Shown in pieces: positions 3,160-62,150 of a stretch of 64,000 nucleotides of DNA. The position numbers were made by a program, and so were the translations under genes. Within the stretch, counting starts at the first letter, position 1; each line of letters opens with the position of its first letter. The stretch is from Podarcis cretensis (lineage: Eukaryota), in the NCBI GenBank assembly GCA_951804945.1, contig OX638150.1, forward strand, positions 82,956,001 through 83,020,000, given 5' to 3'. Under the pieces are notes generated by a model that was given only the letters and a program-made list of their open reading frames with translations, made no database searches and had not been told where the DNA came from.

Positions 3160-3914
3160 TGTACTCTCTAGCTGTCTACTCCTCAGGCTTGTGATTTGTG
3201 CTTTGAAAACATTTTGTCCATTTGTATGAGAGTGTATGATCTGCGTTGTTTGCCTTGCCTTTCCCTTATCAGCCTTCTTCTGCCCTTATTATGATCACTT
3301 TCTCAATCTCTTTGAGATTCAGTTGCAATGTCAGTAGCTTGGTTTGGTCAGTTGCCTGGACATGAGGATACCAGAACACATGCACACTGCTTTGGGGATC
3401 CATGATGAAAGAAAGATGGGATAGGAATAAATTAAAGGCCATCGCTGACTCTGTGGACCAGGAGAAGCACAAGCGAGTGTGAAGTCCTCAGGCCATGTGT
3501 GTGTAGAAGGGGTGCTGAGGGTTCCTTCCCCTCTCCCTGACTGCGGGAATTTGAATCTTCCTTGGAGTTGCAAGGCAAGCAACACTTGGGGACTGCTAAG
3601 GTTCCTCATTCTCAAGTCTGATGAATGAGCTATTACAGGGACTACACTGTTCCAAAAGCCAGCCTTTGGGAGCTGCTGCTTACTTCCTTCTTGTACTGGA
3701 ATTCTGAGGTGGTAGTCAAAAGCCTGACGCTGATAATGATGACTTGCACTAATACTGAATGTGAAAAGGATGTTTTATATCAGCTTCTTATATCAGTCAT
3801 TTTAAAAGTTGTTTAAGACAATTAAAATATTTTCTTTTTTACAGAGGAGCCTTAAATCCTACAGATTATTTGCATCTGAAGTCAATCCAGTGAATTTGAA
3901 ATTGTTTCCAAAAG

Positions 3915-4350
3915 TATTACTTTTTTAAAAAATTATGGCTGCCATTAACAGAGCAGAGGTATACCTAGGACATCAGTTTGCTGACAGCTTTTACATGAGC
4001 TTAACAGTATGGGGCAATCTTTCAACTTGTAACCATCTGTTACTCTGTGAAGTTCTGTGTGATGTTTTGGTCAGGCTATATAAACAATTAACATTTTCTA
4101 CAGTATAAGATAAAATGCAGACCCCCATGCCTACAGATGCATATGATTAGCTGTACTGCTTGAAATGGGTGAGAGTATATAGTATATTAAATATTGCATA
4201 GCAGGGTTGCAAATAGAAGGAATGCCTGGTGCTAAATGTGAGAAGGTGCTTCATACAGCTTTCCATATAGAATTGCATCCCTTTTTTGGAGTGTTTATTA
4301 CATCACCAATGAAACCTAAGAACTGGGTGTGCACCCTACATCCCTATGGA
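3915..4350 (+). repeat. Copy A of a locally duplicated intronic element (partner ~12013-12440)
   Basis: 3999-4096 aligns ungapped to 12094-12191 with 4 mismatches in 98 nt; weaker similarity continues on both sides (boundaries approximate). Confidence 0.92.
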
Positions 4351-5193
4351 AAGTGACAGGGGATGTATATAGGGTTTTATTTTCAAATTTGTTATAGTTT
4401 ATTTCAAAGCCATAATTGAACAGGGGTTCACAATCTTTTCACCACGCGGAATATCTCCACTGGATGAGACCACACAGATTCAACGACATCTTGACCATAA
4501 ATATGGTAACAGATGCTCTCTGTGTCTCATGCATGGTCAGGTTCAGTTTTTCTCTGACTATGCTTTAGCCATTATCCATGCTGCCCCACTGCCCTCAGTT
4601 TCCCTCAGTAAACCAGGAAGATGCTTGAACTCTTCTGGCAAGGAGGAGGAGAGGAGACTGGGAGTTACTAAGTCAGTTGCCTGTGTGCCTAGAACAATGC
4701 CAAACCAGATAGAGCCAGTCAAACACTTCCCTGAAAAATTATGGAAACCATGTGGATCCAGTAGATTTTAGGAAGAGACTATCCTAAATGCAGAAGCAGC
4801 TGAGGGACTGAGATGCTACGCTAGCTTTTCAATCGTGCCTCTCCTACTTACCAGGACAGATGAAGTAGTGCAGAGGTCAGTCTATCGAAAGGCACTGGTG
4901 GAGTCAATCCAGTGCTTCTGCTGTTCAGTACCACTGCACCAACCTCCCCACCACCTCAACCCAGCCCTTTCCCCTCCCAGTAAACAACAGCAACTCACCT
5001 ATCCAGGAAGCAAGTAAAGCAACTCTACCCCCATCAAGTCAGTCACTCCCGTCTAACTAGCCCTTCCTTCTTCCTTTAGTTTTATTCATATGACTTAAAA
5101 TGCATTCTGAACATAGCTCCATTGGTTTTCTACAAACAGCTTTGGATGTACAGTGACACTTCCTTTCCCTCTCTTCCAACTACCTCATGCCCC

Positions 5194-5315
5194 AAGGTTA
5201 CCAGATTTTTTTTCAATGAATCCAGGGACACTTTTCAACTTCAATTGATTTTGTGTGGGGAGTGATTTGTAAATCCGGGGACTGTTCCTGGGAAACAGGG
5301 ACGCCTGGTAACCTT
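5194..5315. mobile_element. Small non-autonomous DNA transposon (MITE)
   Basis: Terminal inverted repeats (TIRs) AAGGTTACCAG (5194-5204) / CTGGTAACCTT (5305-5315); subterminal GGGAC motifs; no clear TSD. Confidence 0.7.
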
Positions 5316-6238
5316 ACCATAAATCTGCTCCACAGGGTTAGGGGGAAACCCCAGAATATATTTAGGAGGAAGTGGAAAGGAGAGGGAGAGGAAGTGCCAT
5401 TGAGTAGCCAAAATTGCTTGCACCAGCAGAGCTGTTTAGTTGGATACCACCCAATATGCTTTAGCCTAGAGGCCTCAGCTGCAGTGCTGGTAAGATTCGT
5501 CCTCCAAATTCTAGAGCATGACACTGATGTCACAGCAGCACTTCTCAAGGTTCTAATCCAGAACCATTTCAATTCCGAGGATAATTCTCTCTTTTTAACC
5601 CATCCCAGCCAAGCCATTCTTATTCCCATGAGCAAAATGGGAAAGAATCCCTGTTGAAGAAGCATGTGTGGAAACCTGTAATTGAAACAAGCAATTCATG
5701 ATACTGAAGGCATGGCAGTCAGTGCAAGCAAGACTGGATGGAAGTCAAATTGGAACATGGGTTCTTCCTGTAATGTTAGCACTTGTCTGTTGGAAACTTT
5801 CAGCATCTCCCTAATAAATTGGAAGTAGAATATTTAAGGAAGAGGTCAGCAACTCGTAGATTCCAGCTGGGAAGTATTTTATCAGCTGTTCTCTTTGGCT
5901 AATACTGATCTGTGTTTTTACATTGCATGCAATGCATTTTCTAAATTTGTTGTTGTTTTCTGTCTTCATCTGATGCTTCTAATGAAAGCACTTGCTGCTG
6001 ACACTCTTTCTTAGGGGATCAGATCAAGACAGGCACTTCATGGTTGGAAGTTAATTGAGTTTGAATGAAAATACTAAAGGATTGGTGTGTGGGTGTGTTG
6101 TTGGAGGGGGGCTTGTAATTGACTCTACTGGTTAATGCTCAGTTTTATTGACAAAATACCAGACATAGTGGCTACCCTCCCACCCCTGGAGTTGGGACTA
6201 TGTAATGTAGTTATTTTGCCTAGCTGGTAATGTGTGTG

Positions 6239-6630
6239 TAGGGATGGACAAATCTGTCCCTTTGGATTTCTCACTTTTCCTGTCTGAAGTTCAGTTCACT
6301 CCATTTCCACATCACTTTGCAATGCTTACTTAAAAGTTCTCACAAAAACCTGTATGTATTTTCATGCACATTGCGCATTTCTGTATGCATTTTTTTCAGG
6401 AAGTTTTCACCAATATAATGCACTTTTGCACATTGTTTTCATTAATATACTTTGTGTGTGTGTGTGCACACTTTCCCTTAAAATACACCCTTTTGTATAC
6501 TTTGGTGCACTGTGGAACTACATTGCAAAAACGAGAGTAGTGCAAAGTTTGAAGGATAGCTGTGTTTCAAGTCATATAACGGTTTGGGAAGGGCAAGTTA
6601 AAATGCAAGCCATTTTCTCCCTCATCCCTA
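6239..6630. mobile_element. MITE with TAGGGATG...CATCCCTA termini; related copy at ~62860-63400 and possibly ~2822
   Basis: Inverted termini; internal gttcagttcactccatttccaca segment shared with ~62870. Confidence 0.65.
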
Positions 6631-7558
6631 TAATGTATGATATACAGTTGTAGAGCCCTATTTTGGATTGTTCATTTGAGTCGTAGCTCATGGTATACCT
6701 GATGAGTACATCTATGTGGACTGAATCAGCATGTCTTCTTTGGGAGTAATGTAGGCAAAGTTTAGCATTTCAGTGGCGTAGTGATTTCTACAGAAGGGTC
6801 AAATATTTTCTCAGCGCTCATACCGAAATCTCTAAATCATCTCTCACACTGATTTCAGTGACATAAATCAGTGTGTAGCTTTACACTGCAATATGCCTTT
6901 ATTTAGATATCAACAGCAACTTTGATCGGTTTGGACGTACGTAAGACAAATGGCACAGATTTTACAGTTCTTGCAAATAATTGTGACAGTTTCAGTAGTA
7001 ACAGTAGCATTCTGCCATTTAGTAGCATGAAGCTTTTGTTTACAAAATCAGAATTGCGTCTTATGCACAGGCACTCAAGTGCAGCTCATACTTGTGTTTA
7101 AATATGTGCACACACAATTATGAATGTGTATTTTGAATGGTCCATTAATTGGAATGGATCTTAACTGTAAGAGGGGCCTAAAAGATCCAAGAAAGGCCTT
7201 TTAAATGATGCAGTTACCTCTACGTTGAATTATATTTGTGTACAGGAAGATGGAACTTCACAATTCAAGTGCGATACCATATCTTTTGGGGAAACCATCC
7301 CTTTCCTCTAGCACTGCAGTGTTTTAACAAATTGCATAGTGCTAGTGATATTTAGCAGAGAAGCTGTCCTTTCGTTCCTCCGATAGTCCCATGTTTATGC
7401 AGCAGATTGAATTAATTGGAAATATTTCTCCTGTTACTTCCTCTATTTTTATTAGCTTGGTGATTTTTTTAAATTAATGAATCAGCTAAACTCACGTTAA
7501 TATATCACATCAATTATATAATGATGGCTTGTTCTATTTTGTTCTTGTTTTTTTCCAG

Positions 7559-7576
7559 CTTCCTCAGGCTCAAAAG
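7559..7576 (+). CDS. CACNA2D3: CACNA2D3 18-nt microexon (exon ~14), LPQAQK
   Basis: ttcttgtttttttccag|CTTCCTCAGGCTCAAAAG|gtaaac; phase 0/0; peptide matches the segment preceding L-x-D-D-Q-G in alpha2delta-3. Confidence 0.93.
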
Positions 7577-10500
7577 GTAAACTATTTTCAATCAATACTT
7601 ATTCAAAAGAAATCACCAACTCTTCATGTTTCCACAGTGTCATGAATATGGTACAATGGTGATCAGTGAAATGCTTTACAATGTCACAGCTGTAATGAAC
7701 TGGAGAGCATAACATTGCTTAAATCAAAGCCAGGCATTGTAAGCAGTCAAGTCACCCACTGAGAGTTACAACTCAGACACAATGTGAGAGCTATTTGAAC
7801 AAAATGGACATGGAGTGGACTGCTGAGTTGCACAATACAGGATCCATTTTGTTATCACTTTGAAAATAATAGACAACCATCAAATGGACATGGCAGTTAC
7901 GAAGAAGCCATCCCTAGGCCGTTACATTCCCCACCAGAGGAACAATGGGTTTCATGGCATGGCTATATCCTTTCACTGGTCCCTATTGTATTGTCTTATC
8001 AAAAGCCTCTCAGTACATCTAGCATATGGTTTGTCCAAGGAGGTTTCCATGCAACATGCTCTTGTTGTTGTACAGCTTCTGCTTTGATATGGTATGATCC
8101 AGAGCTACCCCATTGCATTTCATGATATCACAAACAACAATTGTGGCCAGCACAACATATCACTTGATGCCTGTTGCATCATTCTTGTATAATTCACAAA
8201 TATAATTGAAAGACACATGTGTATATATACACACACGCACTGCTACAGTTTAGAATGTCATTGTGTTATTAGATGTGCGGCATTTAGCCTCCCAGAATTC
8301 TTGTGTGATTACAACAAAATAGCTTTGTCCCTCACCCGTTTGTTTTATCGTAATTATTACTAGATCAGCAGACTTGAATGGAAAAGTCCAAGTGCCCCTT
8401 TCTTTGTGTGCTCAGCTGGATTTTTCCTGCCATTATTGAGCAGGAAAGCCTCCCTCGCCACTGCTGTTTTTCACTTTTGTTTCATGAAGCAGCACAACTT
8501 GCTTTATCGACGCAGAGAGAATAAAGTAGCATGGTGTGGATAAAAGAAGCTGGAGTGGCAGAAAACCTTTGGCATGGGAGAGGCGATCTTTAAGCTTTTC
8601 CTTGCCCCAACTGCTTCTCTCCTTGAAGAGAAAAATACACATGCACCCACTATATTTTCTTCTGCAGGGGCAAGCAATTATAATTTGGGGAGGGGGGGGA
8701 GCTTACAGGGACAGGTTTAAGCTCTTTTCCTCAGAGCTGTTACTTTGATCATTTGGAGTAGTAAAACACAAAAAGAAAAATCTTTCTTCCTCACGTGTAG
8801 CTTGGCTCCAGGTCAAAGCCAATGGCTGTAGTTTAGATGGTCCAATTATAAACACAGGGTCACACATACGTGGAGGCCTCCATTTTGTTTTCTGTGAGGA
8901 GATGCAAGATAATGGTCACTGAGTACTCAAAATGTCACTGAGGTGTAAATGGCTTTAACTGTTTTATGGACCACCCAAGGAACTTTAGCTTTGGGGTCAT
9001 ATCAAAATGTAGTTAGTAAATAAATAAATAATACATTGAGGACCGAGAACTTTTAAATGCCAAATCTATTCCAACCCAATTATCGGTGCTAAAATAACTA
9101 CGGTCCTTTGGTTTCTAGTTTCCAGAGCAAGCAAAATCATTATGAAGATGCTTGCAGCTGCAATTCTAAATGCTCATACGAGAGAACAAGAACTAATGAA
9201 CACAGTGGGACTTACTTCTGCCTCAACTTTGTAGGATTGTGCTGACCATAATCTTTTTAAACTCCTGAAACCCATTTGTAAAGGTTAATAGCCTTTTTAC
9301 ACTTAGCAAAAATGTGGCTTCATTATTTAGTAAATACAATTTTTGGTTAAACTCTTCTACCAAAATGCTCGAGCCCCCTTTTTAGTTGTTCATTCAGTTC
9401 AGAATAACCATCCATAGGAGGGGGGTGCGGAGAGAATACTTGAATTGGAACATCTGTACGGCTTTTGAGGGGACGGAGCCTGTCACTTTGGTGTGCTTAT
9501 TCAGTGTGGAATGAACAGATGAAAGGGGCTTTTGTGTACAGTGTCAGTGATCTGTTAGGACTATTACTAGAGTTAAGGCAAAGGCAACCAAGGTAGAAGC
9601 ACTATGTCAGTTATGGGCATATGTTTACCAGTTTAAAGTAACGGCGGATATGATTCCTATTAAGAGTATGCCAATATCATGCCACGAGTTCCCAGCTCTG
9701 GAGTATATGCTGTTGTTCATTGTTACAGATCTACAAGACTTCCATATATTCTCAAGCTAGGTTCTAAAGGCAGAATTGTTGCTTTCTTAGCATCTCAAAC
9801 GCCAAGGAATAAAATCATTTCCTTTAGGTATCACTGTTGTTCATTCTTTGAACCTCTTTTTAATGCCAGGAACAGCCCTGTTAAGTATGAACTCATCGTT
9901 AAGCATATGCACAGTCCCATTTCTAAAACATTGGGTAACCACAATCCGCTCCCCCAGACGTTGTTAGGAAAATGACCTGCAAGTCACTAGGTGCAATTTC
10001 CAGGCAGCCTTGGGCCCTGTGCTGGGAAATAAACAGGGAAATGAAAGAGGGATATAAAAAGTGAAAAGTATGAAACCATAATAGGTGTTGGAGATATCTT
10101 GCTGCAATTTATCCGTGTTTCTCTATAGTTGACTTGGAACAGCCTTCAGAAGCCAGTCTCCCTTGTGATATTACAAAACTGTTAAGGGATTCCATATTGT
10201 AATAGTTATTCTTTTCTCATCAGTCAAGTTTATTGTCTCAGTTCTACTTCATTCTCTTGAATAGCATCATAATTGTCTTTCAGTTATTGTTGCAAATCTC
10301 ATAGTTAGTTTTCATCCCACAGGTTTGGTTTAAAATGTAATATCGCTGCTGCTTATTCCTAGGCTTAGCTCCAGCCTCTTCTATGGTTAGCAGATGTTGG
10401 ATGCAGTCATGGTATTTTTAGCACTCCCACCTTAATTTGCATACGTTTTTTCAAGGCACTAGTAGCATCTACCTTCACTCATTAGTAGAAATCCCTTTTT

Positions 10501-13500
10501 GCTCAATAAAAGAGGTTGCTTGCATATGCAGTAGCCCCATTCCTTGCAACTTGTCTGTAAATGGTCATTGGTGATATATAAGCAGTTGCAGTGCTAAGGA
10601 CATGCAGCGTAAATTGGATGCACAGTGTATGTGTGCCTATCTAATGGCTTATTTGGCTCATGAAGTCATAAGGCAGTCCTCAAACAGAAATATTTACAGA
10701 GCTACATCATCTTCAGATCTGTATCAAGCAACAGGGAGTTGTTTGATAGCTAACATGAACTTGGTATAAAATTCTGAGTGGAAATGGAGTTTTGTTGAGT
10801 GTACTAATTAGTTCCCCCCATTCTGAATAACACGGAGATGTTTAACATTGAGACTTTCCCCCCAACTAACTGAAGCATGATGAGAAGTTTTCAAATCCAT
10901 TTGGCATTTGTTTGTTTGAGGAAGACCAGTGCAGGACTGATGCTTGTCTTTGTGAATGACTTGAATCAATGCTAGTGTATGCTTTGCCATATGGTGTGTA
11001 AACTTGTACTGTGTTTTTGTTGGAATCTGTGTATCATCTACAAATGTTTTCTGTATAAACATTTTAAATGGTCATGTCTCTATAAACATGCTCACTTTAA
11101 TCTTCAGATGCTTCTAGAATAATAATGTTGCCATCCAACTTTACTTTTTAAAACTTCTATCTGCCTGAAATCTCATATCAACTTTTAGGGATTGTGTGTG
11201 GTTATTCTTTGTGGATATAAACAACCACTTTGGCGACAAGTGGCAGATTCTCTCTTATGCTACTATTAACTTCGAAGTATTTATTGCAAAAATAATAATA
11301 ATTCTGAAAATGGTTTTAAGTAAGCTAACTACTATAAATTCCTACCAGATACAAAGCAGTGTGCATGTTCTTTAAAATATGGATGCCTATATGCAATGGA
11401 CATTGATAGAAATTGAGGACAAATTGACATTTGCCAGTATACGTTTTTAGGCTGCCAGCAAGAAATGTAAGAAAATTAACAATGTTGCATTCAGTGTTAG
11501 TACTGCTAAGAGTAAACTCAATGAAATTAATGAACATAAGTAACTAATGCCCATTAATTTCAGTGAGTCTTCTCTGAATGGAACATTGGATGCAACTCAA
11601 AAGTTCCTACAGTAACAATGTCCTCTTATACAGGAAAGCTCAGAAGTAAGCACCATTGAGTTAATGGGACTTCTAGGCAAATGTATATAAGGTTAAAACC
11701 CAAATGACCACATTTCATTCACATTTCTATAATTTATTGGTAAAGGGAACATTTGTCATGCCCCAGCGACTCAATTATTTCTGTCATTCAACAGAACATC
11801 TGAAGAATAACCAAGTGCCTTCAGTATAATCCATTTCCATGATTTATCAGTAATTGTCAACATTTATCAAACATATCTTCACTAGAACAATCTCTCTGTT
11901 GGTATTTGTTACCAAACTTTCTGTGGCATTTCTTATAGTAATGGCTGGAAGCATTCTAGAGTCATCTAAAGGTTAAAGAGAAAAACAGCAGAACTACAGC
12001 AACAGGTGGATGTGTTACTTTTAAAAATTATGACTACCATAAAAAGAGAAGAGATGTAGCTAGGACAGCAACTTGCTCACAAATTTTACACAGGCTTAAC
12101 AGTATGGGGCAATCTTTCAACTTGTAACCATCTGTTATTTTGTGAAGTTCTGTGTGATGCTTTGGTCAGGCTATATAAACAGTTAACATTTGGTGCAGCG
12201 TAAGATGCAAGACAGACCTCATATCTACAAATGCATATGATTAACTGTACTACTTGAAATGAACACAAGGACATAAGAGTTAAATATTGCATGGGGAGTT
12301 TGTAAACAGAGCGAATGTCCGGTGTGCTGTTTCACACAGCTTCCTATGTGGAATGGCACTGATCCTTTGAAGGGGTTACTGTGGCACTTCTGAAACATAA
12401 GAATTGAATATGAGTTTTAGATCACTATGTAAGAAGAGACATGCTGTAATAAGATGTCCAAATAATTTGGTTTTTGGATGAGCCTTCCAGGCTTATGATG
12501 CCATCAATAAAACCCCAAATATTTAATTCAGAGAAGCAATTAGTTTACTCTGGGCTTTGAATCTGTGTATTTAGCCCTCCTGATTCCTAACCTATTCTGT
12601 TCCTCAAGCATAAGCTACTCCTGTGTAATAGCCCACTGGGGCATTGTTTTACTTGCTTTGTTGAAACAGCAGGCTTCAAGCTGTGTTATCTTATTCCTGT
12701 TGCGAGGTATTTAGTACTGAGCCTGTATGAAACAGGAGGGACTATATATTAGCCATAGTAATGAAAGAGAGTCAGCCTTGAAAAAATAATTTTGCTAAAT
12801 TGAAAACATTGTTCCCCCCTGCCCGAAATGTTTTTAGAATATGCCTCTGTCATATAATCTTACTCCCTCTAAGTTTCCAGCAGCTTCTTTTCTCTTTGAG
12901 TCTTAACTTATTTGGGCAAGGCTTGCTGTCCTTTTATCTTGACACTATTCTGTTTCCAAAAAGCTAGACACATCATTTATCATTCGCTGCTTCATTTACT
13001 TTTTCCTACTTCAAGGTGCTGAATTACAAGGAAAAATTGGAAAATTTGCAACCCTGATATTGCCGTGGAAATGCATCAGCAATTTTTTTTAGCATTTTTA
13101 TTAAAGTTATCTAAAAAGTTAAATTGAACCAAATGAAGTACAAAAGAACAATATAATGGTACAGTAGCTATTTATGGGTTGTTGTTTTTCTGGAGTGCTG
13201 CTTATTTTCTTTGCAGTGCATTTAAACTCTTTTTAAAGCTAATGCCTGTGTGCCTGGAGGAGCATCATGATCACACATGACCCACACCTAATTTCCAGAT
13301 GTTGAGCATAACATCAGCATAGGTAGATCCCAATACATGTAGACTCTAATCACTGATCTGTATATCGCAAAACTGAATCATACTGGATCACATTATTCAT
13401 GCCTATGAAGACTGGGTTCTACACATGTAGGCAGGCTGTAACTAAAAGTAAATCTGATTTATTTATTTTCGGGGGGGGGGAGAGCAGCTTTTTATTTTTC

Positions 13501-17700: not shown

Positions 17701-20700
17701 ACAGGGAGGAGGTGTGGAGAAATCAGTTCCACCAGCCCCATTATAGATGCTTAATTCTGGAGTCAGCCAATAATTTCTATTCAATCCCTACCTGTCAATC
17801 AGGTGCTTTAGCTAAATATGCATTCTGCTAAATGTTTGGTGTTTTGCTCTTGACTTTCTAAAATACTTTGAGGTGTGGCGTTCTCTCAGTGGCAGTGGAC
17901 TGCTTGAACAATTGTTTCTCCCTGGGGGAATGGCAGCGTGTTTTGAAAGCTCTTTGTATCTGTAAACTATCCATGCCAATATACATTTGTAAGATGGCAA
18001 AACTCTGCATCCACCAAAAGTGCTGTGCTCCAGGACACTGTGGGCACACACCTGAGTGCATAACCCACATGCTTCCTGGCATTACACCCTGGAAACCTCA
18101 GCCATACTGTCTGGACCCATTGTTGTGCTCCTACAAGTGATGTCTCTGTGGCTGGGAGGGAACATTTCAACATCCCCTGGCTAGAGGGGATTGAGGGATG
18201 TGTGGGAATTGTGTGGGAGGGAAGATCCAGAGAGAATTTTTTTTTTTAATTCCAAACATATGCTTGCCCCCAACCACAATTTAGTGCATGTGTGTGTGTG
18301 TGTGACTTAATTCTGTATATCCTGTCACCGTGTTAATCTGCCACTTAATGTGCTTTCTAAATAAATAGTATATTGAGTAGTAATCCATATAAAGCAATTC
18401 TTTATATGTGTACTTTGTTCATAAGAATACATGAAAGGCTATCGTATATTAACTATTAATGCCTCAACTCCCACTGACTGGCAAAACCACATGATACCAG
18501 CTTTACAGGTAAAAAACTTGGAGATATGAACTTTGAGATATGAGGAATCATATAAAGACTTAGTTTTATATTCTTCCAGGAACAGTTTCGCAAACAGTCA
18601 AAATTGTCCATCACAAATCTACCGGGGGTGGGGGAAAATATGTCCCCGTTTTTCTAGTCACAATCTTAATATGTGGTTGCCATATGTTTGGTGACAACAT
18701 AGAATTTGATTGTTTCCCAATGCTGGGGCTGAATTTGGCCATGGGAAAGCAGGAGGTAGAAGACTGGCTCAGCCACCGAATAGCACTGTTTTTTCGCTAA
18801 CAGGGAATTTGCCTGTCATCTGTGTTTGCATGAGCTATATGCAGTCTGTGAGCCAGGAGTTCACGGAGGTCAGCAGCATTGTCGTACATGATCTTTAACA
18901 TAGCTGCAATGCATTGGAGATTGTGGAAATGACTATGGCTGAGAGCCATAAGCTCTCAACTCACTTCTTACCAAGCTGGCATGAAAGCCATGTAAGAAGC
19001 AGCCCAGTGGAGTGTAGGTATTAGCCCAAAGGCTACCGTCATCTACTACCATCAGAGTGTTCGTCCTGCAAAAAGTTGTGGACAATGCAGTAAATTGGAT
19101 CCCACGAGAAGTGGAAATGTAAAGAAAATTAAGGGAGATTTGTCTGAATACAAAAATATTCAATACATATCCAACAGATGAGTAAAAGATTACAGTAATA
19201 GATTTCTCTTTCTTTAAATGAAAGATGATTTCAACCACACCTTCCGATAGGCACATGATTTGGACTGAGCCTCACTCAGATGCACTAAAAAGCAATGCAA
19301 TGCAGGTTGCAATGGGCTCTTAAACATCATTTCCATTAATCAGAAGATAACTTCTTTGGATGCTTTCATAGCTATGATTTGATAATGGTCCCATCTCATA
19401 TTGCTCTGTATTAATATCTCTTCTTATTTTTTAAATGTAGCTTGCAGACGATCAGGGATTGGTTTTGATGACCACTGTTGCCATGCCAGTATTTAGTAAG
19501 CAAAATGAGACTGTAAGTACTCACGCCATACACCAGCCATGTGCTACAAAATCAGCACAAATGTGAACGTCTTGATGAAGCTATGCATTTCTCGACTGTT
19601 GGTATCCTCTACCTTCTCCCCATAAATGTGTACTTGGTGTTAAAATAAATGCCATACAACATACTTAGCAGCAAAGAACTGAAAAGTAAACTTTCAGTGG
19701 TTCTTGAAATAAAACGCCTTGTCCCTTTTTAAGAAGAAGCACACATTAAAAATACAAATATCAAGGTTTTAAATACTGTTTAGCATAGTGGGGTGTTTTG
19801 GACATCAAATAGGATGCAATCCAGGTAAAGCTAAATTTTATTTATTTATGCTTGGAAGCTATTGGTTTCAATAGGATCTAAGCACCCCAATCTTTCCCTG
19901 AATTGTTCAGATTTGCCATGCTATTGTATTGGGCGCACCGCAGCCTACTGTTCAAGGTGGAATAGATCACAGGTAGGAAAAAGGTAACACGTGTGCACCT
20001 GTAACCAATATTACCATAGAAATTCCCTGAAACAACATGTGCACATGTTTGTGCATAAGATACTGTACATCTGTGCACACAGACACAAACATGTGTGCTT
20101 TTGCTGTCACTGTGGTTTTTCTGATTGGAGCAAATGTCTGTAATTATTCTTTTCTTAGACTAGTGCTAGTGTATATATCCATAAATATTTCTACTATATT
20201 TCTATAATAGGGATCTGGGGTTTTAAAAATCTATTTCCATTTTATATTTGCATTTACCTTGCCCTTCATATTTAATTCTTGCCTCCTGGGCTTCGCAAAC
20301 TATTTGAAACAGAAGATAAATTGCATTTTTCTATGCCATATTTTGTCTGGATGGGGCTTCCTGAGTCAGAATGTTTAATTGAAAGCATCCTTATCAGCTG
20401 CAACTTTGCACACAACCTTTGATTTTATTTCTAGGGTAGGGGAAAGAAGACATCTATTGATTTTGTTTGTGTGCGTATTCAGCCAGATTAGCTGCAGCCA
20501 CCCATAATACCTTGTCAAATAGTTGGAAGAATTAGCTAGTTATCGGCAGTGCTCAGTGCAGTTTTAATCCATATGGGAAATACTTATTGACTGAATTACT
20601 GTGCTCTAACTGTAATTGTTTGTTCCAACTAATCTGCATTTTTTCCAAACAATCTTTTAAAATAGAGATCGAAAGGCATTCTTTTGGGAGTTGTGGGCAC

Positions 20701-31649: not shown

Positions 31650-34600
31650 GACTGTGTTTTGTTACCCTACATCATGATATAGTATCATTCACAGAGACAT
31701 TCTCACATGCTGAATGTCAGCTGGGCTGCTGAGTCCAGCCACTTCAGTCAGTAACTTAGTTTTTCTTTTTAGTGAGTGAAAGTCACTCAGTAATTTAATT
31801 GACACCTCTAAAATTGTCGAGACTCTTCCTAAAACTTTGAAGAGCATTGCCATCCCCTAGTTCCTCTCCCCCAAGTGATGAAAAAGAAATTGGGCTGAAT
31901 GAAGGCTTATAAGGGAGTAACTGCTCTGAGAGACCCAATCAATTTAGAATTTGGGCAGAATAATCCCAGTTTGTGCTGCTCGCTATGGTTAGGAGGTGTT
32001 CTCCTGACAGGCCTCAACAGCAGTGGGCTGCACCACTGCAGAGGCCCTTGCCAAAGGTGGTATTTCAAGCAGCAGTAACCAGCAGTAGGTCCTCAGAGTG
32101 ATTTGAGGGAGAGGTCAGAGCTGGGCTGGCAATGGATCAAAGCAAACACAGTTCCTGGAGAGGAGTCTAATTTTGGACCCCTGAGCTGCAGCAGCCTGAA
32201 GCTGGCACAGCAAAATAGGTACAGCATCTCTTCCCTCACCTTCTGCCTTAGCCAGCAGGAGCCAACAGCAATGAATCTGCCACTGCACACCCTTGCTCCT
32301 GTTAGAACTGCCCCCTTAAAAGCCTACACTATTTGGGCTTTCAGTGTGAGCACATATACACTCAGATTTTCAGTGGTTTTCACAAGCTACCTGGCAAGCT
32401 GTCCTGTGGACCAGCAGTGGTGTTCTGTGCTTGGACCATCCAAAACTCCTCATCAAGAAATGAGCTGCCTTGTTCTCATCCATAGGAACCTTCTAACCAT
32501 TCTTTAACATTTGTTCCATGTAAAGTGCCTTGTTGTGGTAGATGCAATGATGCCAGCTCTATAGCCAAGTTTGTGTACACGATCTTTCTCCCTTGGTTAT
32601 AGATGTTTCAGCCACCATGTATCAGCATGGACATTGCAAGTGGGACAAAATTAAGCCCATACTGTATAAATAACATTGGAAGTGTTTTAAATTAAAATGC
32701 CAACTATGTTCAGGATATTTCTCCTCATACTGTCAAAATTTTTCAATGGACTGAGAAATAAATCCAGCTGAAACAAATGGGACTTAATTCAGATGCATTC
32801 TGATCCAAATAGTGTGCTAGTATAAATCAGGGGCAATTAAAAGTTTACCGCCTCTGAATATGGAATTTTGGCTCTCATAACTATTGAAATCAGTGCGCCT
32901 TTTCAGTAAAATCTGGTTTCAGTTGAGGTGTAAGTTTCTCAGTTTGCTTATTGGAGTTATACAGCTTTAAACTTATTTCTATGGGACTATTCGCTCTAAT
33001 AAAGTTTAATAGCATGTGTAAATGCTTCCAGTTCTGAGTCGTAGCCAATTTCATGTTGATACCGCATTAAGACGTTGGTCTTGAAAAAGCAGTTGATCCG
33101 CTACTTTCGGGTTGAGGGACCTGTTGCCCTCCTAGTGTGGCTAGTAAAATGGTTCCAAATGGAACAGAATAGTAAATATGAGCATACTCCAAGGTTTGAC
33201 ATAAACACAATTTGAGAGACAATAAAATATGAACCTTCCTTGGAATGCGTTAAATGTAATCTTGTTGTATAGGATAGATCTCAATATTGTGCTATTACAG
33301 ACACTCCATCTGTGCAAGCATTTCAGCTTGCCAGGTACAATCATCAGCCCTTTCTTTCCCCTACACACTGCTCTGAGGGTTCTCCTGACCCCTCCAGACC
33401 CAATTTTGGTTGTGCAGCGGAAGAGAGGGAAGCCATTTTACATAAGTTTGTGCAGGCGAAAACTGCTCCAAGAGTATATTTGTAAGAAAGTTGTTCCACA
33501 AGAGTGTAGCAAGGAAAATTCACCAGTCATTCTTTGGAAATCATTTGAACTTGCTTCCGAGTAAATGTGATTATTGTTGAGCTTTTAGGATTTTGAACTA
33601 TTTCTGTAAACTGCTTGAAGCTTTACTAAAATCAAGTCGTATATAAATGTTAACTCCAATCCATGACTCCAGTACTATGATTGTCCAAGAGCAAAGTGGT
33701 GTGTGTTCTCCCTGCCTACTTAAATGTATCAAAGGTCTTGGGGATAATAAAGTAACACATTTCAGCTTAATAATTTAGTTTGCCGGGGGGATGCAAAGTG
33801 AGGGGGAGACTCCTTGGTCCTGAACAGGATAACTGTTCCCCTGAAAGACCAGGTGCACGGCCTGGGAGTCATTTTGGACTCACAGCTGTCAGTTCTGTGT
33901 CCAGGGCAGCTGTTTATCAGCTCCATCTGATATGCAGGCTGAGACCCTACCTGCCTGCAGACTGTCTCACCCAAGTGGTGCATGCCCTGGTTATCTCCTG
34001 CTTGGACTACTGCAATGGGGCTGCCTTTGAAAGTGACTCAGAAACTACAACTAATCTTGAATGCAGCAGCTAGACTGGTGACTGGGAGTGGCCATCGGGA
34101 CCATATAACACTGGCCCTAAAAGATCTTCACTGACTGCCAGTATGTTTCTGAGCACAATTCAAAGTGTTGGTGCTGATCTTCAAAGCCCTAAATGACTTT
34201 GGCCCAGCATACCTGATGGAGTGTCTCCACCCCCATCACTCAGCCTGGACACAGAGGTCCTCCTCCAAGGGTCTTCTGCTGGTTCCCTCACTGCGAGAAG
34301 CAAAGTAACAGGGAACCAGGCAGAGGGCCTTCTCAGTAGTGACACCCTCCCTTCAGATGTCAAAGAGATAATTTTAGAAGACATCTGAAGGCAGCCATGT
34401 ATTGGGAGGTTTTTAACGCTTGGTGTTTTTATTATGTTTTTAGATATGCTTAAAGCCACCCAAGGTGGCTGGGGAAACCCAGCCAGATGGGTGGGGTATA
34501 AATAATAAATAATAATAATAATAAATGTTATTTGTTATTATTTTACAGCAGGCTGTTGAACTTTCATTTTCTGAAAAGAATCTCATCAGCTGTTGTACTT

Positions 34601-47700: not shown

Positions 47701-50700
47701 TGGCAGAAAGCAGCCCAGAATCAGCAGCAGAAGCAGAGGGGGGGGGTCAAGAGGTGAAGTAGAGGCAGGCTGCTGAAGAGGCCAGGGAGTCTCCCCCTCC
47801 TGCTGTGAGTAGCTCTGATCTCCCTCCTGCTGTGAGTAGCTCTGATCTCCCAGAGCATGCAGAGAAATGAAGAGGGTGGAACACTGAGAGAGCCTTAGGC
47901 TGCTGGAGGAAGAACTGGGGGAGGAGGCTTAGAGAGTAGTGGGAAGACGGGAACCATCAGTCCTCACAACTGGCTCATTGGGGCAAGACCTACTGGGAAG
48001 AGTTGCTGTGATCATTAGGCCTGTGCTGTTTGGGTTCTTTTCAATAAAGAGTTAACTTCACTGACACTGGGTGTTTTATTGCTGACCTGCTCCTGACTCT
48101 GGTTCCTGGCAGCCATTATATTTTAAAATGTGTATTTTTTAAAAAAGTAGGTTGTGTCTTGTTTCCATACTAATCCTTCTCTCCTTGTAAGCAGAAGCGT
48201 CCATTGAAAGTAGCAGCTTCAGAAAAGTGATTTTCTTTTTGTCAGAATGATGGCATGGCAGGAAGAGAAAAATTTTAATTTCGATGCTCACCACACATGG
48301 CTACTGCATGAAAAACAAACAAACCTCATATTAATTGTGTCTGCACACTTAACCCATGACCAAGAAGACTTCCGGAAAATGTTTTTGCTGAGAGGACTTT
48401 GCCTGAAGCTGTCTAAGCAGAACCCTATGGATCCAAATATGCATTTTTATCTATCCTATCAGGTTCTAATCTATAATCCATTAACATGAGTTGAAAACTT
48501 CTCATCCTTGGTAGTTAAATTACACGAAGATGGAAGGTTACTGTGTGCACATGGCTTCAGCAGCTATGCGAAATATCTTCATTTTGCCCAAATACGCGAA
48601 CTACAAAGAAGATAATTTTTTTTCTCATTCCTTGTCTAACTATATGACTGTATTTTACTTTCAGCTTCGAAATGCAATGGTGAATCAGAAAACAGGAAAA
48701 TTCTCTATGGAAGTGAAGAAAACCGTGGACAAAGGGGTATCGTATAGAAAATACTTTTTCAGCTAGTAGTAAAACAAATAATTGCTTTTTTAAAAAACAC
48801 CCACAAACCATTGGTTTAAAGTGTATGTTTGGAGTGGAAAACTTTCCCTGAGACATGATGCCCACAGTGTTTATTAATTGTGGGTCAGATATAAACATTT
48901 GCATGTATGTGTGCACATTGCTGTTATTAATCTTGTCACAGATTTTAAGTTTGCTTTTGCATTTAACCCTGCAAACCTTTCCTAACAGGCATGTTGTTGT
49001 TTCTCTTTCCTTTTCTAAATCTAGAAGCGGGTGTTGGTGATGACAAATGACTACTATTATACAGACATCAAGGGGACTCCTTTCAGGTAGGGCTGGCCAT
49101 AATAAATGGAACATTTCATCAGGCTCATTGCAGTTGCAAGCCTTGCGAGCTCATTAAAAGCTCATCAGGAGGGCTGACAATAAAATACTCCTGGACAATG
49201 CTGCAAAGAGCGAGGGAAAAGGTTTCCGAACGTGCCTTTTTAGGTTTCATTCAGGGATGGGTAGTTTGTGAAAGGTAAATTCTTTGGCTGTGATCCGGAC
49301 CTGCCATTCAGGAAGTCCTCTGCTCTCTTCAGTGCTTGGGGAGAGCAGCATGTGTGTGTTCCTGTCTCTACTGAACTGCCCCTACCACACCAGAGAAGAA
49401 GGCAGCTCTGCTTGCACAGAGCTCTGGGAAAGGAATAGTACCATTTAAAGGATTACACTAACAAATGCATCTCTGTGTGCACAGAGGAGGCTTGTTGAGC
49501 CACAAGCCATTCAAAGTATGATATTGTGTGTATGCAGCCTCTCCTGACCTGGTGTTAACTAGACTGAAGAGACAACAAGGGTACAGCAGGACTCCAGAGC
49601 TGTGTGTTTAGCTCTTCCCCAAATTCCCAAACACTCTCTGAGCCCCTCATGGAGAACCCAGGAAGATAAAAGTTCTCTATTGTTTCTATGAATACGAAAG
49701 ACTCCCCACTCCAGAAGCTCATTGCATGAGAGGTTGATAGAATTTGTGTGGCTCCAGGGACAGGCCTTCATGCCAGTAACACCTGTAAAAGGCTCTGGGC
49801 TGCCTCAAGTAAGCAGGCAAGACCTCAGTCCTGGCTGTGGCACCAATGGACCCCCAGTTCTTCTTCTTCCTGCCCAATTGTGCAATAAGCCCCTACTGCC
49901 TGCATATCAGCTCTGAGCCATAGGCATCAGACAAAGGAGAGCCAAGTGGCAAGGGAGCTGAGAGAGATACACTCCAAAATATACCAGAGCCAAGAAGCCT
50001 GTTGTAGCTCAGGCAAAGTCTCATCCCAAATCAGAAGCCTTCTGGAGTCCTTCCTGTCCAGGAAGATCCAATAGCCAATCAGGGTAGGTAGTCCGGAGCC
50101 TGAAAATGCATTGCTGCCCAGATGTTTTGGACTACAAGACAGAAGTACTGTTTTTGGGGGACAGGAGGCGGGCAGGTGTGGAGGATTCCATGGTCCTGAA
50201 TGGGGTAACTGTGCCCCTGAAGGACCAGGTGCGCAGCCTGGGAGTCATTTTGGACTCACAGCTGTCCATGGAGGCACAGGTCAAATCTGTGTCCAGGGCA
50301 GCTGTTTACCAGCTCCATCTGGTACGTAGGCTGAGACCCTATCTGCCTGCGGACTGTCTCGCCAGAGAGGTGCATGCTCTGGTTATCTCCCGCTTGGACT
50401 ACTGCAATGCACTCTACGTGGGGCTACCTTTGAAGGTGACTCGGAAACTACAACTAATCCAGAATGCGGCAGCTAGACTGGTGACTGGGGGCGGCCGCCG
50501 AGACCATATAACACCGGTCTTGAAAGACCTACATTGGCTCCCAGTACATTTCCGAGCACAATTCAAAGTGTTGGTGTTGACCTTTAAAGCCCTAAATGGC
50601 CTCGATCCAGCATAACTGAAGGAGCGTCTCCACCCCCATCATTCTGCCTGGACACTGAGGTCCAGCGCCGAGGGCCTTCTGGCGGTTCCCTCATTGCGAG

Positions 50701-50939
50701 AAGCAAAGCTACAGGGAACCAGGCAGAGGGCCTTCTCAGTAGTGGCGCCCGCCCTGTGGAACACCCTTCCAGCAGATGTCAAAGCGATAAACAACTACCT
50801 GACATTCAGAAGACATCTTAAGGCAGCCCTGTTCAGGGAAGTTTTTAACGTGTGATATTTTACTGTATTTTTGGTTTGTATGGAAGCCGCCCAGAGTGGC
50901 TGGGGAGGCCCAGCCAGATGGGTGGGGTATAAATAATAA

Positions 50940-50974
<35 letters not shown>

Positions 50975-53900: not shown

Positions 53901-56900
53901 TGATTACAATCCTTAGGATATCATGCTTGTGGGACAACTAGGGTAAAAGTGCCTGTTGTCTTAACATGCTTGAAGACCAGCTTGAAGTTTGTACAGGTGT
54001 CTTCCAGCTGTCTAACCTATGTGGTCCTGTATATATAATGATATTCAGTTCCCAAGGTTTAATCAAATGCATTCCCTTGGTTCTTGCATATTTCAGTACT
54101 GATAGAAATACACTTAATTTAGATTAGTTATGGTATATAACCTAGCAGTCCACTCCCTACCCCAAAGAAGGAAGAATGACTGTCTTGAACTGTATACAGA
54201 CACTGAACTGATTCTGATAGCTTTCAGAAAATGACCCTTGTCACATTTTCCGATTTCAGGATTGAATGATTTAGAACAGCCTGATGTCTCTTTGGCAGAT
54301 GAATGGTAAGTCTTCAATAAAGCATGCAGTTGATTTGTGTTGCTCTTTTTGTTCATGTGTGGTGTGTCTGACTCCTTCTGCAGAATGACAATGGGAGATC
54401 ACACTTACAAATATTTGTTGAAATTATTTTTAACCATGCTATGTTCTCAGGTCATATTGCAACACAGACTTGCATCCTGAGCACCGCCAAATGACTCAGC
54501 TGAAGGCTATTCAAAACTACCTCATGGGGAAAGAGCCATTGCTTCCTTGTGAGTTGTTGATTAATTTTGATAAGTATTCCTCCAAACTGTATTTGCCTTT
54601 TACAGCTTCATTTTTAATGCAATACACAGGAAATGGGCAGCGTACATCATTGGTGGGGGCCTGAGCTTGCTTGAACCATCAAATCAGTAGCTGGTCTAGG
54701 CAAGCTTTTTTTTCTCAGCCTCAGTTCCCCCATCTGTGATATTGGGGTTATAATACTGACCTACCACTGAATGGATTATAACACAATAAAGATTTGGAAG
54801 CTCTTTGAACACTACATAAACATTAAGTATCCTTACTTAAGAAAGTTCCATTTGTACTGGATGTTATACAACAAACTGCTGGGTGAAACCTTTGCTTGCG
54901 TCACTAGAAATACATTGGCATGTATTACTGAGAAAAGCAAGATGGATTTTGACGTTCAGACTGTTTGATGATCATACCTGTATGTGCTTTGGTAACAAAA
55001 ACTTAACTGAGCTGTGGTTGGGATGTGAGACAGTACTGTCTGCAGCACAACCTTACACATGAAACTGGGAATTTTCCATTGCTGGCCACAGAAAGCAAAT
55101 GTTCCATGTGTTCATTTAATAGTGTCTTCTATAAGTTGGTACTGGGACAGAATATGGGTGCTGGTGGATCGCAACCAGTATTGTGGAATGATGCTACCAA
55201 GCATGATAGTACCTGGATGAAATATAGCATGGACATATGGAACTCGTATAAGGATTAGTGCAAGGAATCCAGGAAATTTAGATTTTCATGTTCAAGAGAA
55301 AGATGCTAGCCATGGTATGTGAGATTTTCCTCCTCCCCGTCTCATCTCAAATAGGTGAGATTTCCACCACATACGTACCTACAATTTCTTCTGGGGCCAG
55401 AGTCCGCAGTGAAGTATACAGTCTCTAACAACAGACATGTAGCATTCCTGCCAATATCTACTGACTCCAAGTTTACTGTCGTAAGAAGGCTGCACACATG
55501 CTCCTTATTAATGCTTTTAAAACTTTATAGGTGATAAAGAATTAATACAGGAAGTCCTGTTTGATGCAGTGGTCAGCGCACCAATAGAAGCTTATTGGAC
55601 CAGCCTTGCACTGAACAAATCAGAGTAAGTGAACAAAGCATTGCTTATGATTCTTTTAATAATGTCTTCACTCAGTTACATACATTTATTTTTCACCAAT
55701 TCATTCATTGTTTTAAATATATGATGCACAGAAATAATTCACCTGCCCTTATAGACTCTTCCATTTGTAACAGTGGAAAGATTTGATTCGTGTCTACATT
55801 CTTTAGAACCTCTTCTGTACTAGAGTAATGGGTGTTATATATTATTAAAATACTACTTCCATAATAATGACCTAAATCATAGATTTCCAATGTGGTGTGA
55901 TCTGTTACTATAAAGAAGCAATGCAGAAGAAAGAAGCAGCAGCTAAACCAGCTGCTGGTGGCTGGAAAGCCAGACAGGATGTTTGTGACTGTTACCATGG
56001 CAATAAAGGGGCAGTCCATTCTCCGTATTGAGCACCGGATGTGAGCTCAGTGTGTGTCATATGACCTGTACAGGATGTACATGGGTGGAGTTTAATGATT
56101 CTCTCTGTTGTTTGTGAAGAGTGCAGACATGTTTATCTGTATGGCTGCTAAAGACAGAAATAAAGACATGTAAATACGTTTCTGTCTAAGTCTGATTCCC
56201 CTCCCTGGGGAGCAGGGAGAGGGAGAAGCAGTGGTGTGTTTTTCTCACAGTCTGGGAAAAATCACCGATACAGACCTCGCATGTTTACCTGCCGGGAGTC
56301 GCAGGGGGAGGTCAAAGGAATTCAGCCGGTGCCTGAAAAGGTAGGCACATTCCTCTGACCGAGGCAGAATTCCAACATGATCCAGGTACTGTTGAAATCC
56401 AGGAGCTATCAACCCAAAGCCAATGGCCACGCTGGCTTCCCCTAATCTAGACTGTCCTCCTGGTACAGGCTTTGCTGTGCTGGCATCCTGAGAGTGCCAC
56501 TACTCTCTCTTCTCAGGTGCTGCTACCAACCGCTGGCGTTTTCTAAAACTGGGGCTGTGATGCGACTTCGCTTGTAGAGTTGCATGTAGAGTTGGCATGT
56601 AGAGTTGCTAAGCTGAAACCCAGCTATTTCTCTTTTCCATTAAACCCATTACTAAAACAAAAGATTGGGCAGCTGTGTAGCTATCCTCAGTCCTGTCATT
56701 CCCCTGCAATCATCCACTACCCACTGTAATGAGCAAGTGAGCTGTACATCAGCTGAGGAGGGAGGCTGACGACAGAGCCTGCAGCATAATGGATGAGAGA
56801 AATGAGGACTCTCTTGTCTTCCAAGTCAGCAGCCCATTAAAGGGCCGTGGGGGGAATCTCTAGGCAGCCACCTGACAACCCTCACGGCGTCATTTGTTCT

Positions 56901-61211: not shown

Positions 61212-62150
61212 GTTTGTTTGTTTTATTCCCTTAATTTATCGACCACCCTTCATCCAAGGATCAAAGGGTGTTTTACAGTTTCGAAAAACAAAAGCACATA
61301 ATAACAAACAAAACAATGCTTCCCCCCAACACACAGTTTATAAGGCCATAGATGGTTTAGTTAGCCAAAGGCCTGGGAGAAGAGAAATGTTTTTGCCTGG
61401 TGCCTAAAGATATGTCATGAAGTCACCAGGTGAGCATCTCTGAGGAGAACACTGCACAGCGGAGAGCTACTGCGGAAAAGATCCATTCTCATGTTGCCAT
61501 CCTCTTACCTCCCATGGAGGGGGCACACAAAGAAGGGCCTCAGATGATGATAGTAGTCACACCCACCCTGTGAAACACCTTCCCATCAGATGTCAAGGAA
61601 ATAAACCACTATCTGACTTTTAGAAGACGTCTGAAGGCAGCCCTGTACAAGGAAGTTTTTAATGTTTGATGCCTTACTGTGTTGTAATTTGTTGAAAGCC
61701 GCCCAGAGTGATTGGGGCAACCCAGCCAGATGGGTGGCATATAAATATATTATTAGTATAACTACTACTATTACTATTACTGTTGCAGAGTCTGGGTTGG
61801 TTCATACGGGGCGAGGCAGTTCTTGAGGTATTACAGTATTTGCATATTTAAGGTTTGAATTTGGCTCAGAAACTGATTGGCAGCCAGTGCAGGCAGGCCA
61901 GGTTGGGTTTAATATGCTCAAACCATCTTGACCCGGCGAACAGCTTGGCTGCTGAATTCTGCACCAGCTGAAGTTTCCAAATTGTCTTCAGAGGCAGCCC
62001 TGTATGTTGCAGTAATCTAACCTAGAGATTACCAGAGCACAGAAAACAGACGTTAGGCTATCATTGCACAGGTAGCTGCGCAGCTGAGCCAGCAGCCGAA
62101 GTTGGTGGAAGGAGGCGAGTCCAGCCATATCTGAAGAGCACCAAGCTGGC
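61212..62150 (-). mobile_element. Antisense older L2 fragment interrupted by a sense L2 3' end
   Basis: Reverse complement similar to 51045-51423; further L2 ORF2-like remnants to ~62050. Confidence 0.75.
61551..61785 (+). mobile_element. L2 3'-end fragment nested in the antisense L2
   Basis: Aligns to ~50738-50945; (TAC/TAT)n tail. Confidence 0.85.

Follow-up and report, generated by a model that had tools for sequence, protein, structure and literature searches.

The vertebrate dCNEs of McEwen et al. 2006 reportedly lie mostly beside paralogous genes that stem from whole-genome duplication. The element pair analyzed here likewise has a short core, strongly conserved between two copies of one genome, with less conserved flanks; unlike the dCNEs, it occupies adjacent introns of one gene, and its conservation was compared in close relatives only. 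Ultraconserved poison or alternative exons, SCN1A 20N for example, are said to be intronic, conserved at the nucleotide level and equipped with an in-frame stop. These three properties are shared by the present element, whereas its splice signals are weak and no spliced form was found among the retrieved proteins. For shadow enhancers, one study (PMC13345019) gives evidence of duplication in 33.9% of the mouse sets. Shadow enhancers formed by local duplication resemble the present pair in that a single gene has two non-coding elements which are homologous to each other, flanks included, and have retained their motif content; the sets are defined there by enhancer activity or chromatin, whereas the pair described here is defined by its sequence and, unlike those sets, flanks a microexon. 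Neither the element nor the peptide LPQAQK nor six 16-mers taken from the core were found described in the full-text literature, supplements (with possible CNE/UCE lists) being outside the search.

The window, a stretch of 64,000 nucleotides of the Podarcis cretensis genome, contains part of CACNA2D3 (alpha2delta-3): with a window exon as query, all of the 12 matches were CACNA2D3 proteins of squamates. Mapping of CACNA2D3 proteins to the genome placed an exon ending in TEAYVDST at about -17.3 kb. Downstream of it, the microexon LPQAQK, flanked by AG and GT ends, is followed by the next constitutive exon. Among the matches listed, LPQAQK or a close variant was present in 7/130 proteins spanning the site (from snakes, bird and fishes), so that the microexon is ancient and alternatively included. 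A second in-frame AG within the microexon, at 7568, could yield a 9-nt AQK variant. Copy A of the element is located in the intron before the microexon and copy B in the intron after it, as given by the following features (position 1 is the first nucleotide of the window).

3912..4351, no strand assigned: copy A of the element, non-coding and duplicated, in the CACNA2D3 intron that precedes the LPQAQK microexon
3999..4096, no strand assigned: core A, from self-BLAST
4010..4020, plus strand: CAAT-like motif GGGCAATCT, fitting a loose C/EBP pattern
4032..4041, minus strand: putative E-box, exact AACAGATGGT; five in 264 kb, two of which are those of these copies
4077..4086, plus strand: TATAWAWR box with an overlapping forkhead-type ATAAACA
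4113..4168, no strand assigned: second conserved block, 82% identical between A and B, containing the POU-like ATGCATATGATTA
4165..4174, plus strand: ATGG/GTGAGA, in copy A only; out of frame with the host exons, position +5 being A instead of G in 2/2 relatives
7559..7576, plus strand: microexon LPQAQK of CACNA2D3, 18 nt, phase 0, single copy
12010..12432, no strand assigned: copy B of the element, in the intron that follows the LPQAQK microexon
12094..12191, no strand assigned: core B, apparently the same as core A along 89 nt in three other species
19441..19512, plus strand: next constitutive CACNA2D3 exon (LADDQG...), marking the end of the intron in which copy B lies, from protein mapping

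Self-BLAST confirmed two copies in the same orientation at an offset of 8,095, aligned from 3924-4351 to 12019-12432 with 316/428 identical positions on the same strand (E 4e-80; 74% identity overall). The ungapped cores, with 94/98 identical positions and no difference within the first 44 nt, were also recovered as originally read; they differ at 4043, 4045, 4065 and 4087. The flanks had been called clearly more diverged than a sharply conserved core. They are more diverged (Fisher P 2e-8 for the contrast of core and flank identity), but identity is graded rather than sharply two-level: it amounts to 78% in 3915-3998, 96% in the core, 62% in 4097-4112, 82% in 4113-4168, and 66% and 64% in the distal blocks. 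Taken together, the proximal blocks reach 79% and the distal ones 65% (Fisher P 0.005). Permuting the match vector 100,000 times never produced a window of 98 columns with 94 matches. A window at least as good was present in 6/588 old repeat pairs within 864 kb, the A/B pair counted, so that a core of this kind is not unique among repeats. The distance between the flanks of A and B (0.37) is about 15-fold that between species (0.024), from which we infer a duplication about 15 times older than the split of the species compared.

DNA and pattern searches of the same genome returned copies A and B only, whether the query was the whole element, its core, its right flank or one of three sub-motifs, while two nearby old repeats, used as positive controls with the same search tool, gave 921 and 558 candidates. 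No third copy was found in 864 kb around the window, and the pair is thus not a dispersed repeat or LTR, in line with the earlier failure to recognize a transposon. Scanning metagenome contigs with 18-mers yielded chance matches only, at 52 loci, the longest being 27 nt. Between the A-side and B-side intervals no further homology and no second or decayed LPQAQK microexon were found. This indicates that about 430–500 bp were copied, or that the rest was lost beyond recognition; a tandem duplication of the full 8 kb is not supported with a single microexon and no other shared sequence. Recombination between the copies, proposed as a route to loss of the microexon, is allowed by the geometry, but no corresponding joint was present in two genome-wide runs.

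Several other features were observed in and around the window. High-copy short repeats, with very high depth in relatives, lie between the copies (5194-5316, 6250-6560 and 11510-11580), as does a palindrome at 11509-11575. LINE 3' fragments, presumably L2-like, were seen in translated frames at 33808-34542, 50184-50972 and 61242-61781, and long open frames of what we take to be a copia-like (about -55 to -58 kb) and a gypsy-like retrotransposon (+149 to +153 kb) are situated inside CACNA2D3 introns. Nested in a CACNA2D3 intron on the minus strand are leucine-rich repeat (LRR) and transmembrane exons (about 69.8-76.0 kb in window coordinates) of a gene approximately 60 kb downstream of copy B, which we take to be LRTM1. 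Opsin exons on the minus strand, presumably parapinopsin-like, are located about 446-458 kb upstream of the window. Synteny of parapinopsin with CACNA2D3 is reported in PMC4570685; at about 450 kb this opsin is too distant to be considered as linked to the element. Core segments 4049-4074 and 12144-12169 match the CACNA2D3 coding exon at 55551-55576 on the same strand (21/26 for A and 22/26 for B; P 0.0035 and 0.0005 against 2,000 random intronic 99-mers). The match, noticed after the fact, does not extend to either side and is probably due to chance.

The explanation we prefer, with about even confidence, is that of a locally duplicated conserved non-coding element, likely enhancer-like, with a 98-bp core probably held by purifying selection. 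The element is non-coding: it lies between mapped host exons of CACNA2D3, and its core is without Pfam or Rfam match. Approximately 430 bp of CACNA2D3 intron would have been copied once, 8.1 kb away, to the other side of the LPQAQK microexon, giving what is likely a duplicated cis-regulatory element in which a 98-bp putative transcription-factor-binding core was probably retained by purifying selection. Selection rather than gene conversion would be the main cause of the likeness of the cores, and occasional conversion from A to B may help to keep B alike. The two copies would most plausibly act as redundant (shadow) enhancers, with CACNA2D3 or a neighbor (the nested LRTM1, for instance) as the target and the E-box, the forkhead/TATA and the POU-like sites as putative working parts.

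Evidence on selection came from sequencing runs of related species. The stretch is contained, wholly or in part, in 20 of the 24 runs listed, from 7 studies, and none of these was listed as RNA; six were compared, covering close relatives only. Four related species have both copies; among them, X16 and X17 diverge from the window by about 2.4% (121/4913 and 166/6839). In each of X11, X16 and X17, positions 3998-4086 are covered by a single 89-nt contig that is identical to A and has about 1.6-1.8 times the depth of neighboring contigs, and the flanking contigs break exactly as those of a collapsed two-copy repeat would; along these 89 nt, A thus appears to equal B in all three species. In X14 the collapsed contig is only 45 nt long (3998-4042), unchanged from A, and the two copies of X14 differ at two places, its copy B sharing T at 4043 and 4045 with copy B of the present genome. 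The latter differs from A at four positions within 12093-12181 (3998, 4043, 4045 and 4065 in A coordinates), those at 3998 and 4065 being private to it. Since A is unchanged in X11, X16 and X17 and two of the changes in B are shared with X14, all four differences are placed on copy B. Over the slightly longer interval 12093-12195 of copy B, private changes were seen at 12093, 12160 and 12195, while those at 12138 and 12140 also occur in X14.

An unchanged core A has a probability of 0.014 under a four-lineage star tree with 2.4% background, and of 0.04-0.24 with a local background of 1.6% or fewer independent lineages (0.24 at two lineages combined with the 1.6% local rate). For four changes over both copies, P ranges from 0.03 to 0.20; as a cross-species test this is weak. 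The four changes within 89 nt of this genome's B correspond to the neutral rate or exceed it. The species relationships are unrooted in this comparison.

The same data bear on a reading in which the pair is a functionless old duplicate, its central 90-100 bp kept alike by repeated non-allelic gene conversion and its motifs incidental, which we consider unlikely but deserving of some weight. The equality of A and B over 89 nt in three species, next to four differences here and two in X14, looks as though A had been copied over B in part of the lineages; the stepwise fall-off of identity is what nested conversion tracts would give, and the flanks differ between species by 1.3-1.8%, near background. 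Against it, neutral conversion would let the sequence common to both copies drift, yet core A has no change in the species compared, and the mark of conversion, a change that A and B of a species have in common, was found in none of the four species. Furthermore, efficient conversion in vertebrate cells usually needs longer homology than the identical tract offers, which is under 100 bp and embedded in flanks of 65-78% identity. The sequence-only reading had ascribed the core to selection or gene conversion. Constraint is probably at work, and the unchanged core A favors, without proving it, selection on at least A, next to which gene conversion may also act. For copy B of this genome, it is possible that constraint was relaxed in its lineage or that B was overwritten from A in the other species.

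Under the preferred enhancer reading, the motifs of the element are candidate binding sites. Their positions were as first stated, with GGGCAATCT at 4012/12107, TATATAAA at 4077/12172, ATAAACA at 4080/12175 and ATGCATATGATTA at 4137/12231. They were chosen after the fact, and the TATA, forkhead and C/EBP patterns are common: per 98 bp, the chance rate is 0.14 for TATAWAWR and 0.26 for the forkhead-type ATAAACA, and the loose C/EBP consensus, to which we presume GGGCAATCT to belong, is present locally about 0.33 times. The rarest motifs are the AACAGATGGT E-box, taken by us to represent the NeuroD/Neurog/TAL1-E47 type consensus, and ATGCATATG, which we assign as POU-like. An exact proneural-type E-box is rare here, at 0.002 per 98 bp, and ATGCATATG occurs five times in 264 kb, two of these being in the copies. 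The combination of E-box and POU-like site would fit a neural enhancer, the host gene being neuronal.

Alternatively, the core might act in RNA, either as a rare alternative last or poison exon or in splicing control of the microexon, which we regard as decidedly unlikely. In both copies an AG (4006-4007 in A) is followed by 27 open phase-0 codons and a TAA (4089-4091) near the core end, the host intron is of phase 0, and the copies flank an alternatively included microexon. In addition, the core is conserved at the nucleotide level, as is typical of poison exons. On the other hand, the pyrimidine tract of the acceptor is poor and the internal donor TTG/GTCAGG is weak; three of the four A/B core differences are non-synonymous in the 27-codon frame, and the peptide was present in 0/132 alpha2delta proteins (best 120 of 358 matches listed) and had no Pfam match. 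An RNA role is not supported by folding either: the consensus hairpin is no better than with randomly placed substitutions (P 0.49-0.57; SCI 0.71 vs 0.73). A long consensus hairpin without broken pairs was rejected after these null tests, RNAalifold being a program that selects compatible pairs. No stable fold of the element was obtained (z between -1.2 and +0.5); a small hairpin at 3985-4060 alone reached z -2.5 (P 0.03). Rfam gave no match in the whole window at gathering threshold and only sub-threshold matches, all outside the cores, in E-value scans around A and B, and a structured ncRNA (snoRNA or pre-miRNA) was dismissed with neither a family match nor a supported fold. One run (X20) contains a 683-nt contig over 11786-12455 together with short intronic pieces, its RNA origin being only guessed, and another (X21) covers a repeat only; neither is taken as evidence on expression.

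That the copies are true TATA promoters starting sense transcripts near 4107 and 12202 is distinctly improbable. A canonical TATAWAWR box is present in both cores (4077 and 12172) with the CAAT-like 9-mer 65 nt upstream, a pair which occurs seven times in 264 kb, two of them here, and there is no indel from the TATA box to the expected start. However, a CAAT box requires the CCAAT pentamer (NF-Y box), which is absent on either strand of either core. No downstream gene body is common to A and B. The ATGG/GTGAGA donor site is confined to copy A, as had been noted; joined to the host exons it is out of frame and leads to an early stop, and its +5 G (4173) is A in both X16 and X17. It is probably incidental. 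An N-terminally truncated alpha2delta-3 would, moreover, lack the signal peptide. The sense-promoter model is weakened by these results, and the antisense first exon offered in its place is unsupported, its GTAAAA donor (3989/12084) being present but outside the core in the 78% flank. What stands of the old duplicated intronic promoter or enhancer is the old two-copy intronic duplicate with a probably constrained core.

It is very improbable that the twin cores form a matched regulatory pair either side of the microexon that controls it, whether as phase-0 terminal or poison exons or as hairpin arms pairing across 8 kb to loop the microexon out, with B periodically rewritten from A. Barely credible is the reading of the copies as transposable-element remnants, either a pair of solo LTRs or both ends of a single provirus. 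The geometry would speak for it, as direct repeats of approximately 430 bp that are spaced 8 kb apart and carry CAAT-like and TATA motifs resemble an LTR element. Against it, there is no further genomic copy, no transposon domain in the 38 open frames between A and B (Pfam), no gag/pol remains between them and no polyadenylation signal common to both, and no target-site duplication exceeds the length of chance 6-mers; moreover, the ancient host microexon between the copies means that they are not LTRs of one insertion.

The element belongs to an ordinary class of elements, and a twin enhancer would be useful rather than surprising because redundant enhancers often arise by duplication; the pair would matter more only if it controlled the microexon. 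If it is a twin enhancer, it would represent a compact natural enhancer duplication at a neuronal calcium-channel gene, with both copies kept for a long time. With copy B apparently drifting in this genome yet seemingly equal to A in three relatives, the pair could help to tell apart the effects of selection and gene conversion on non-coding DNA.
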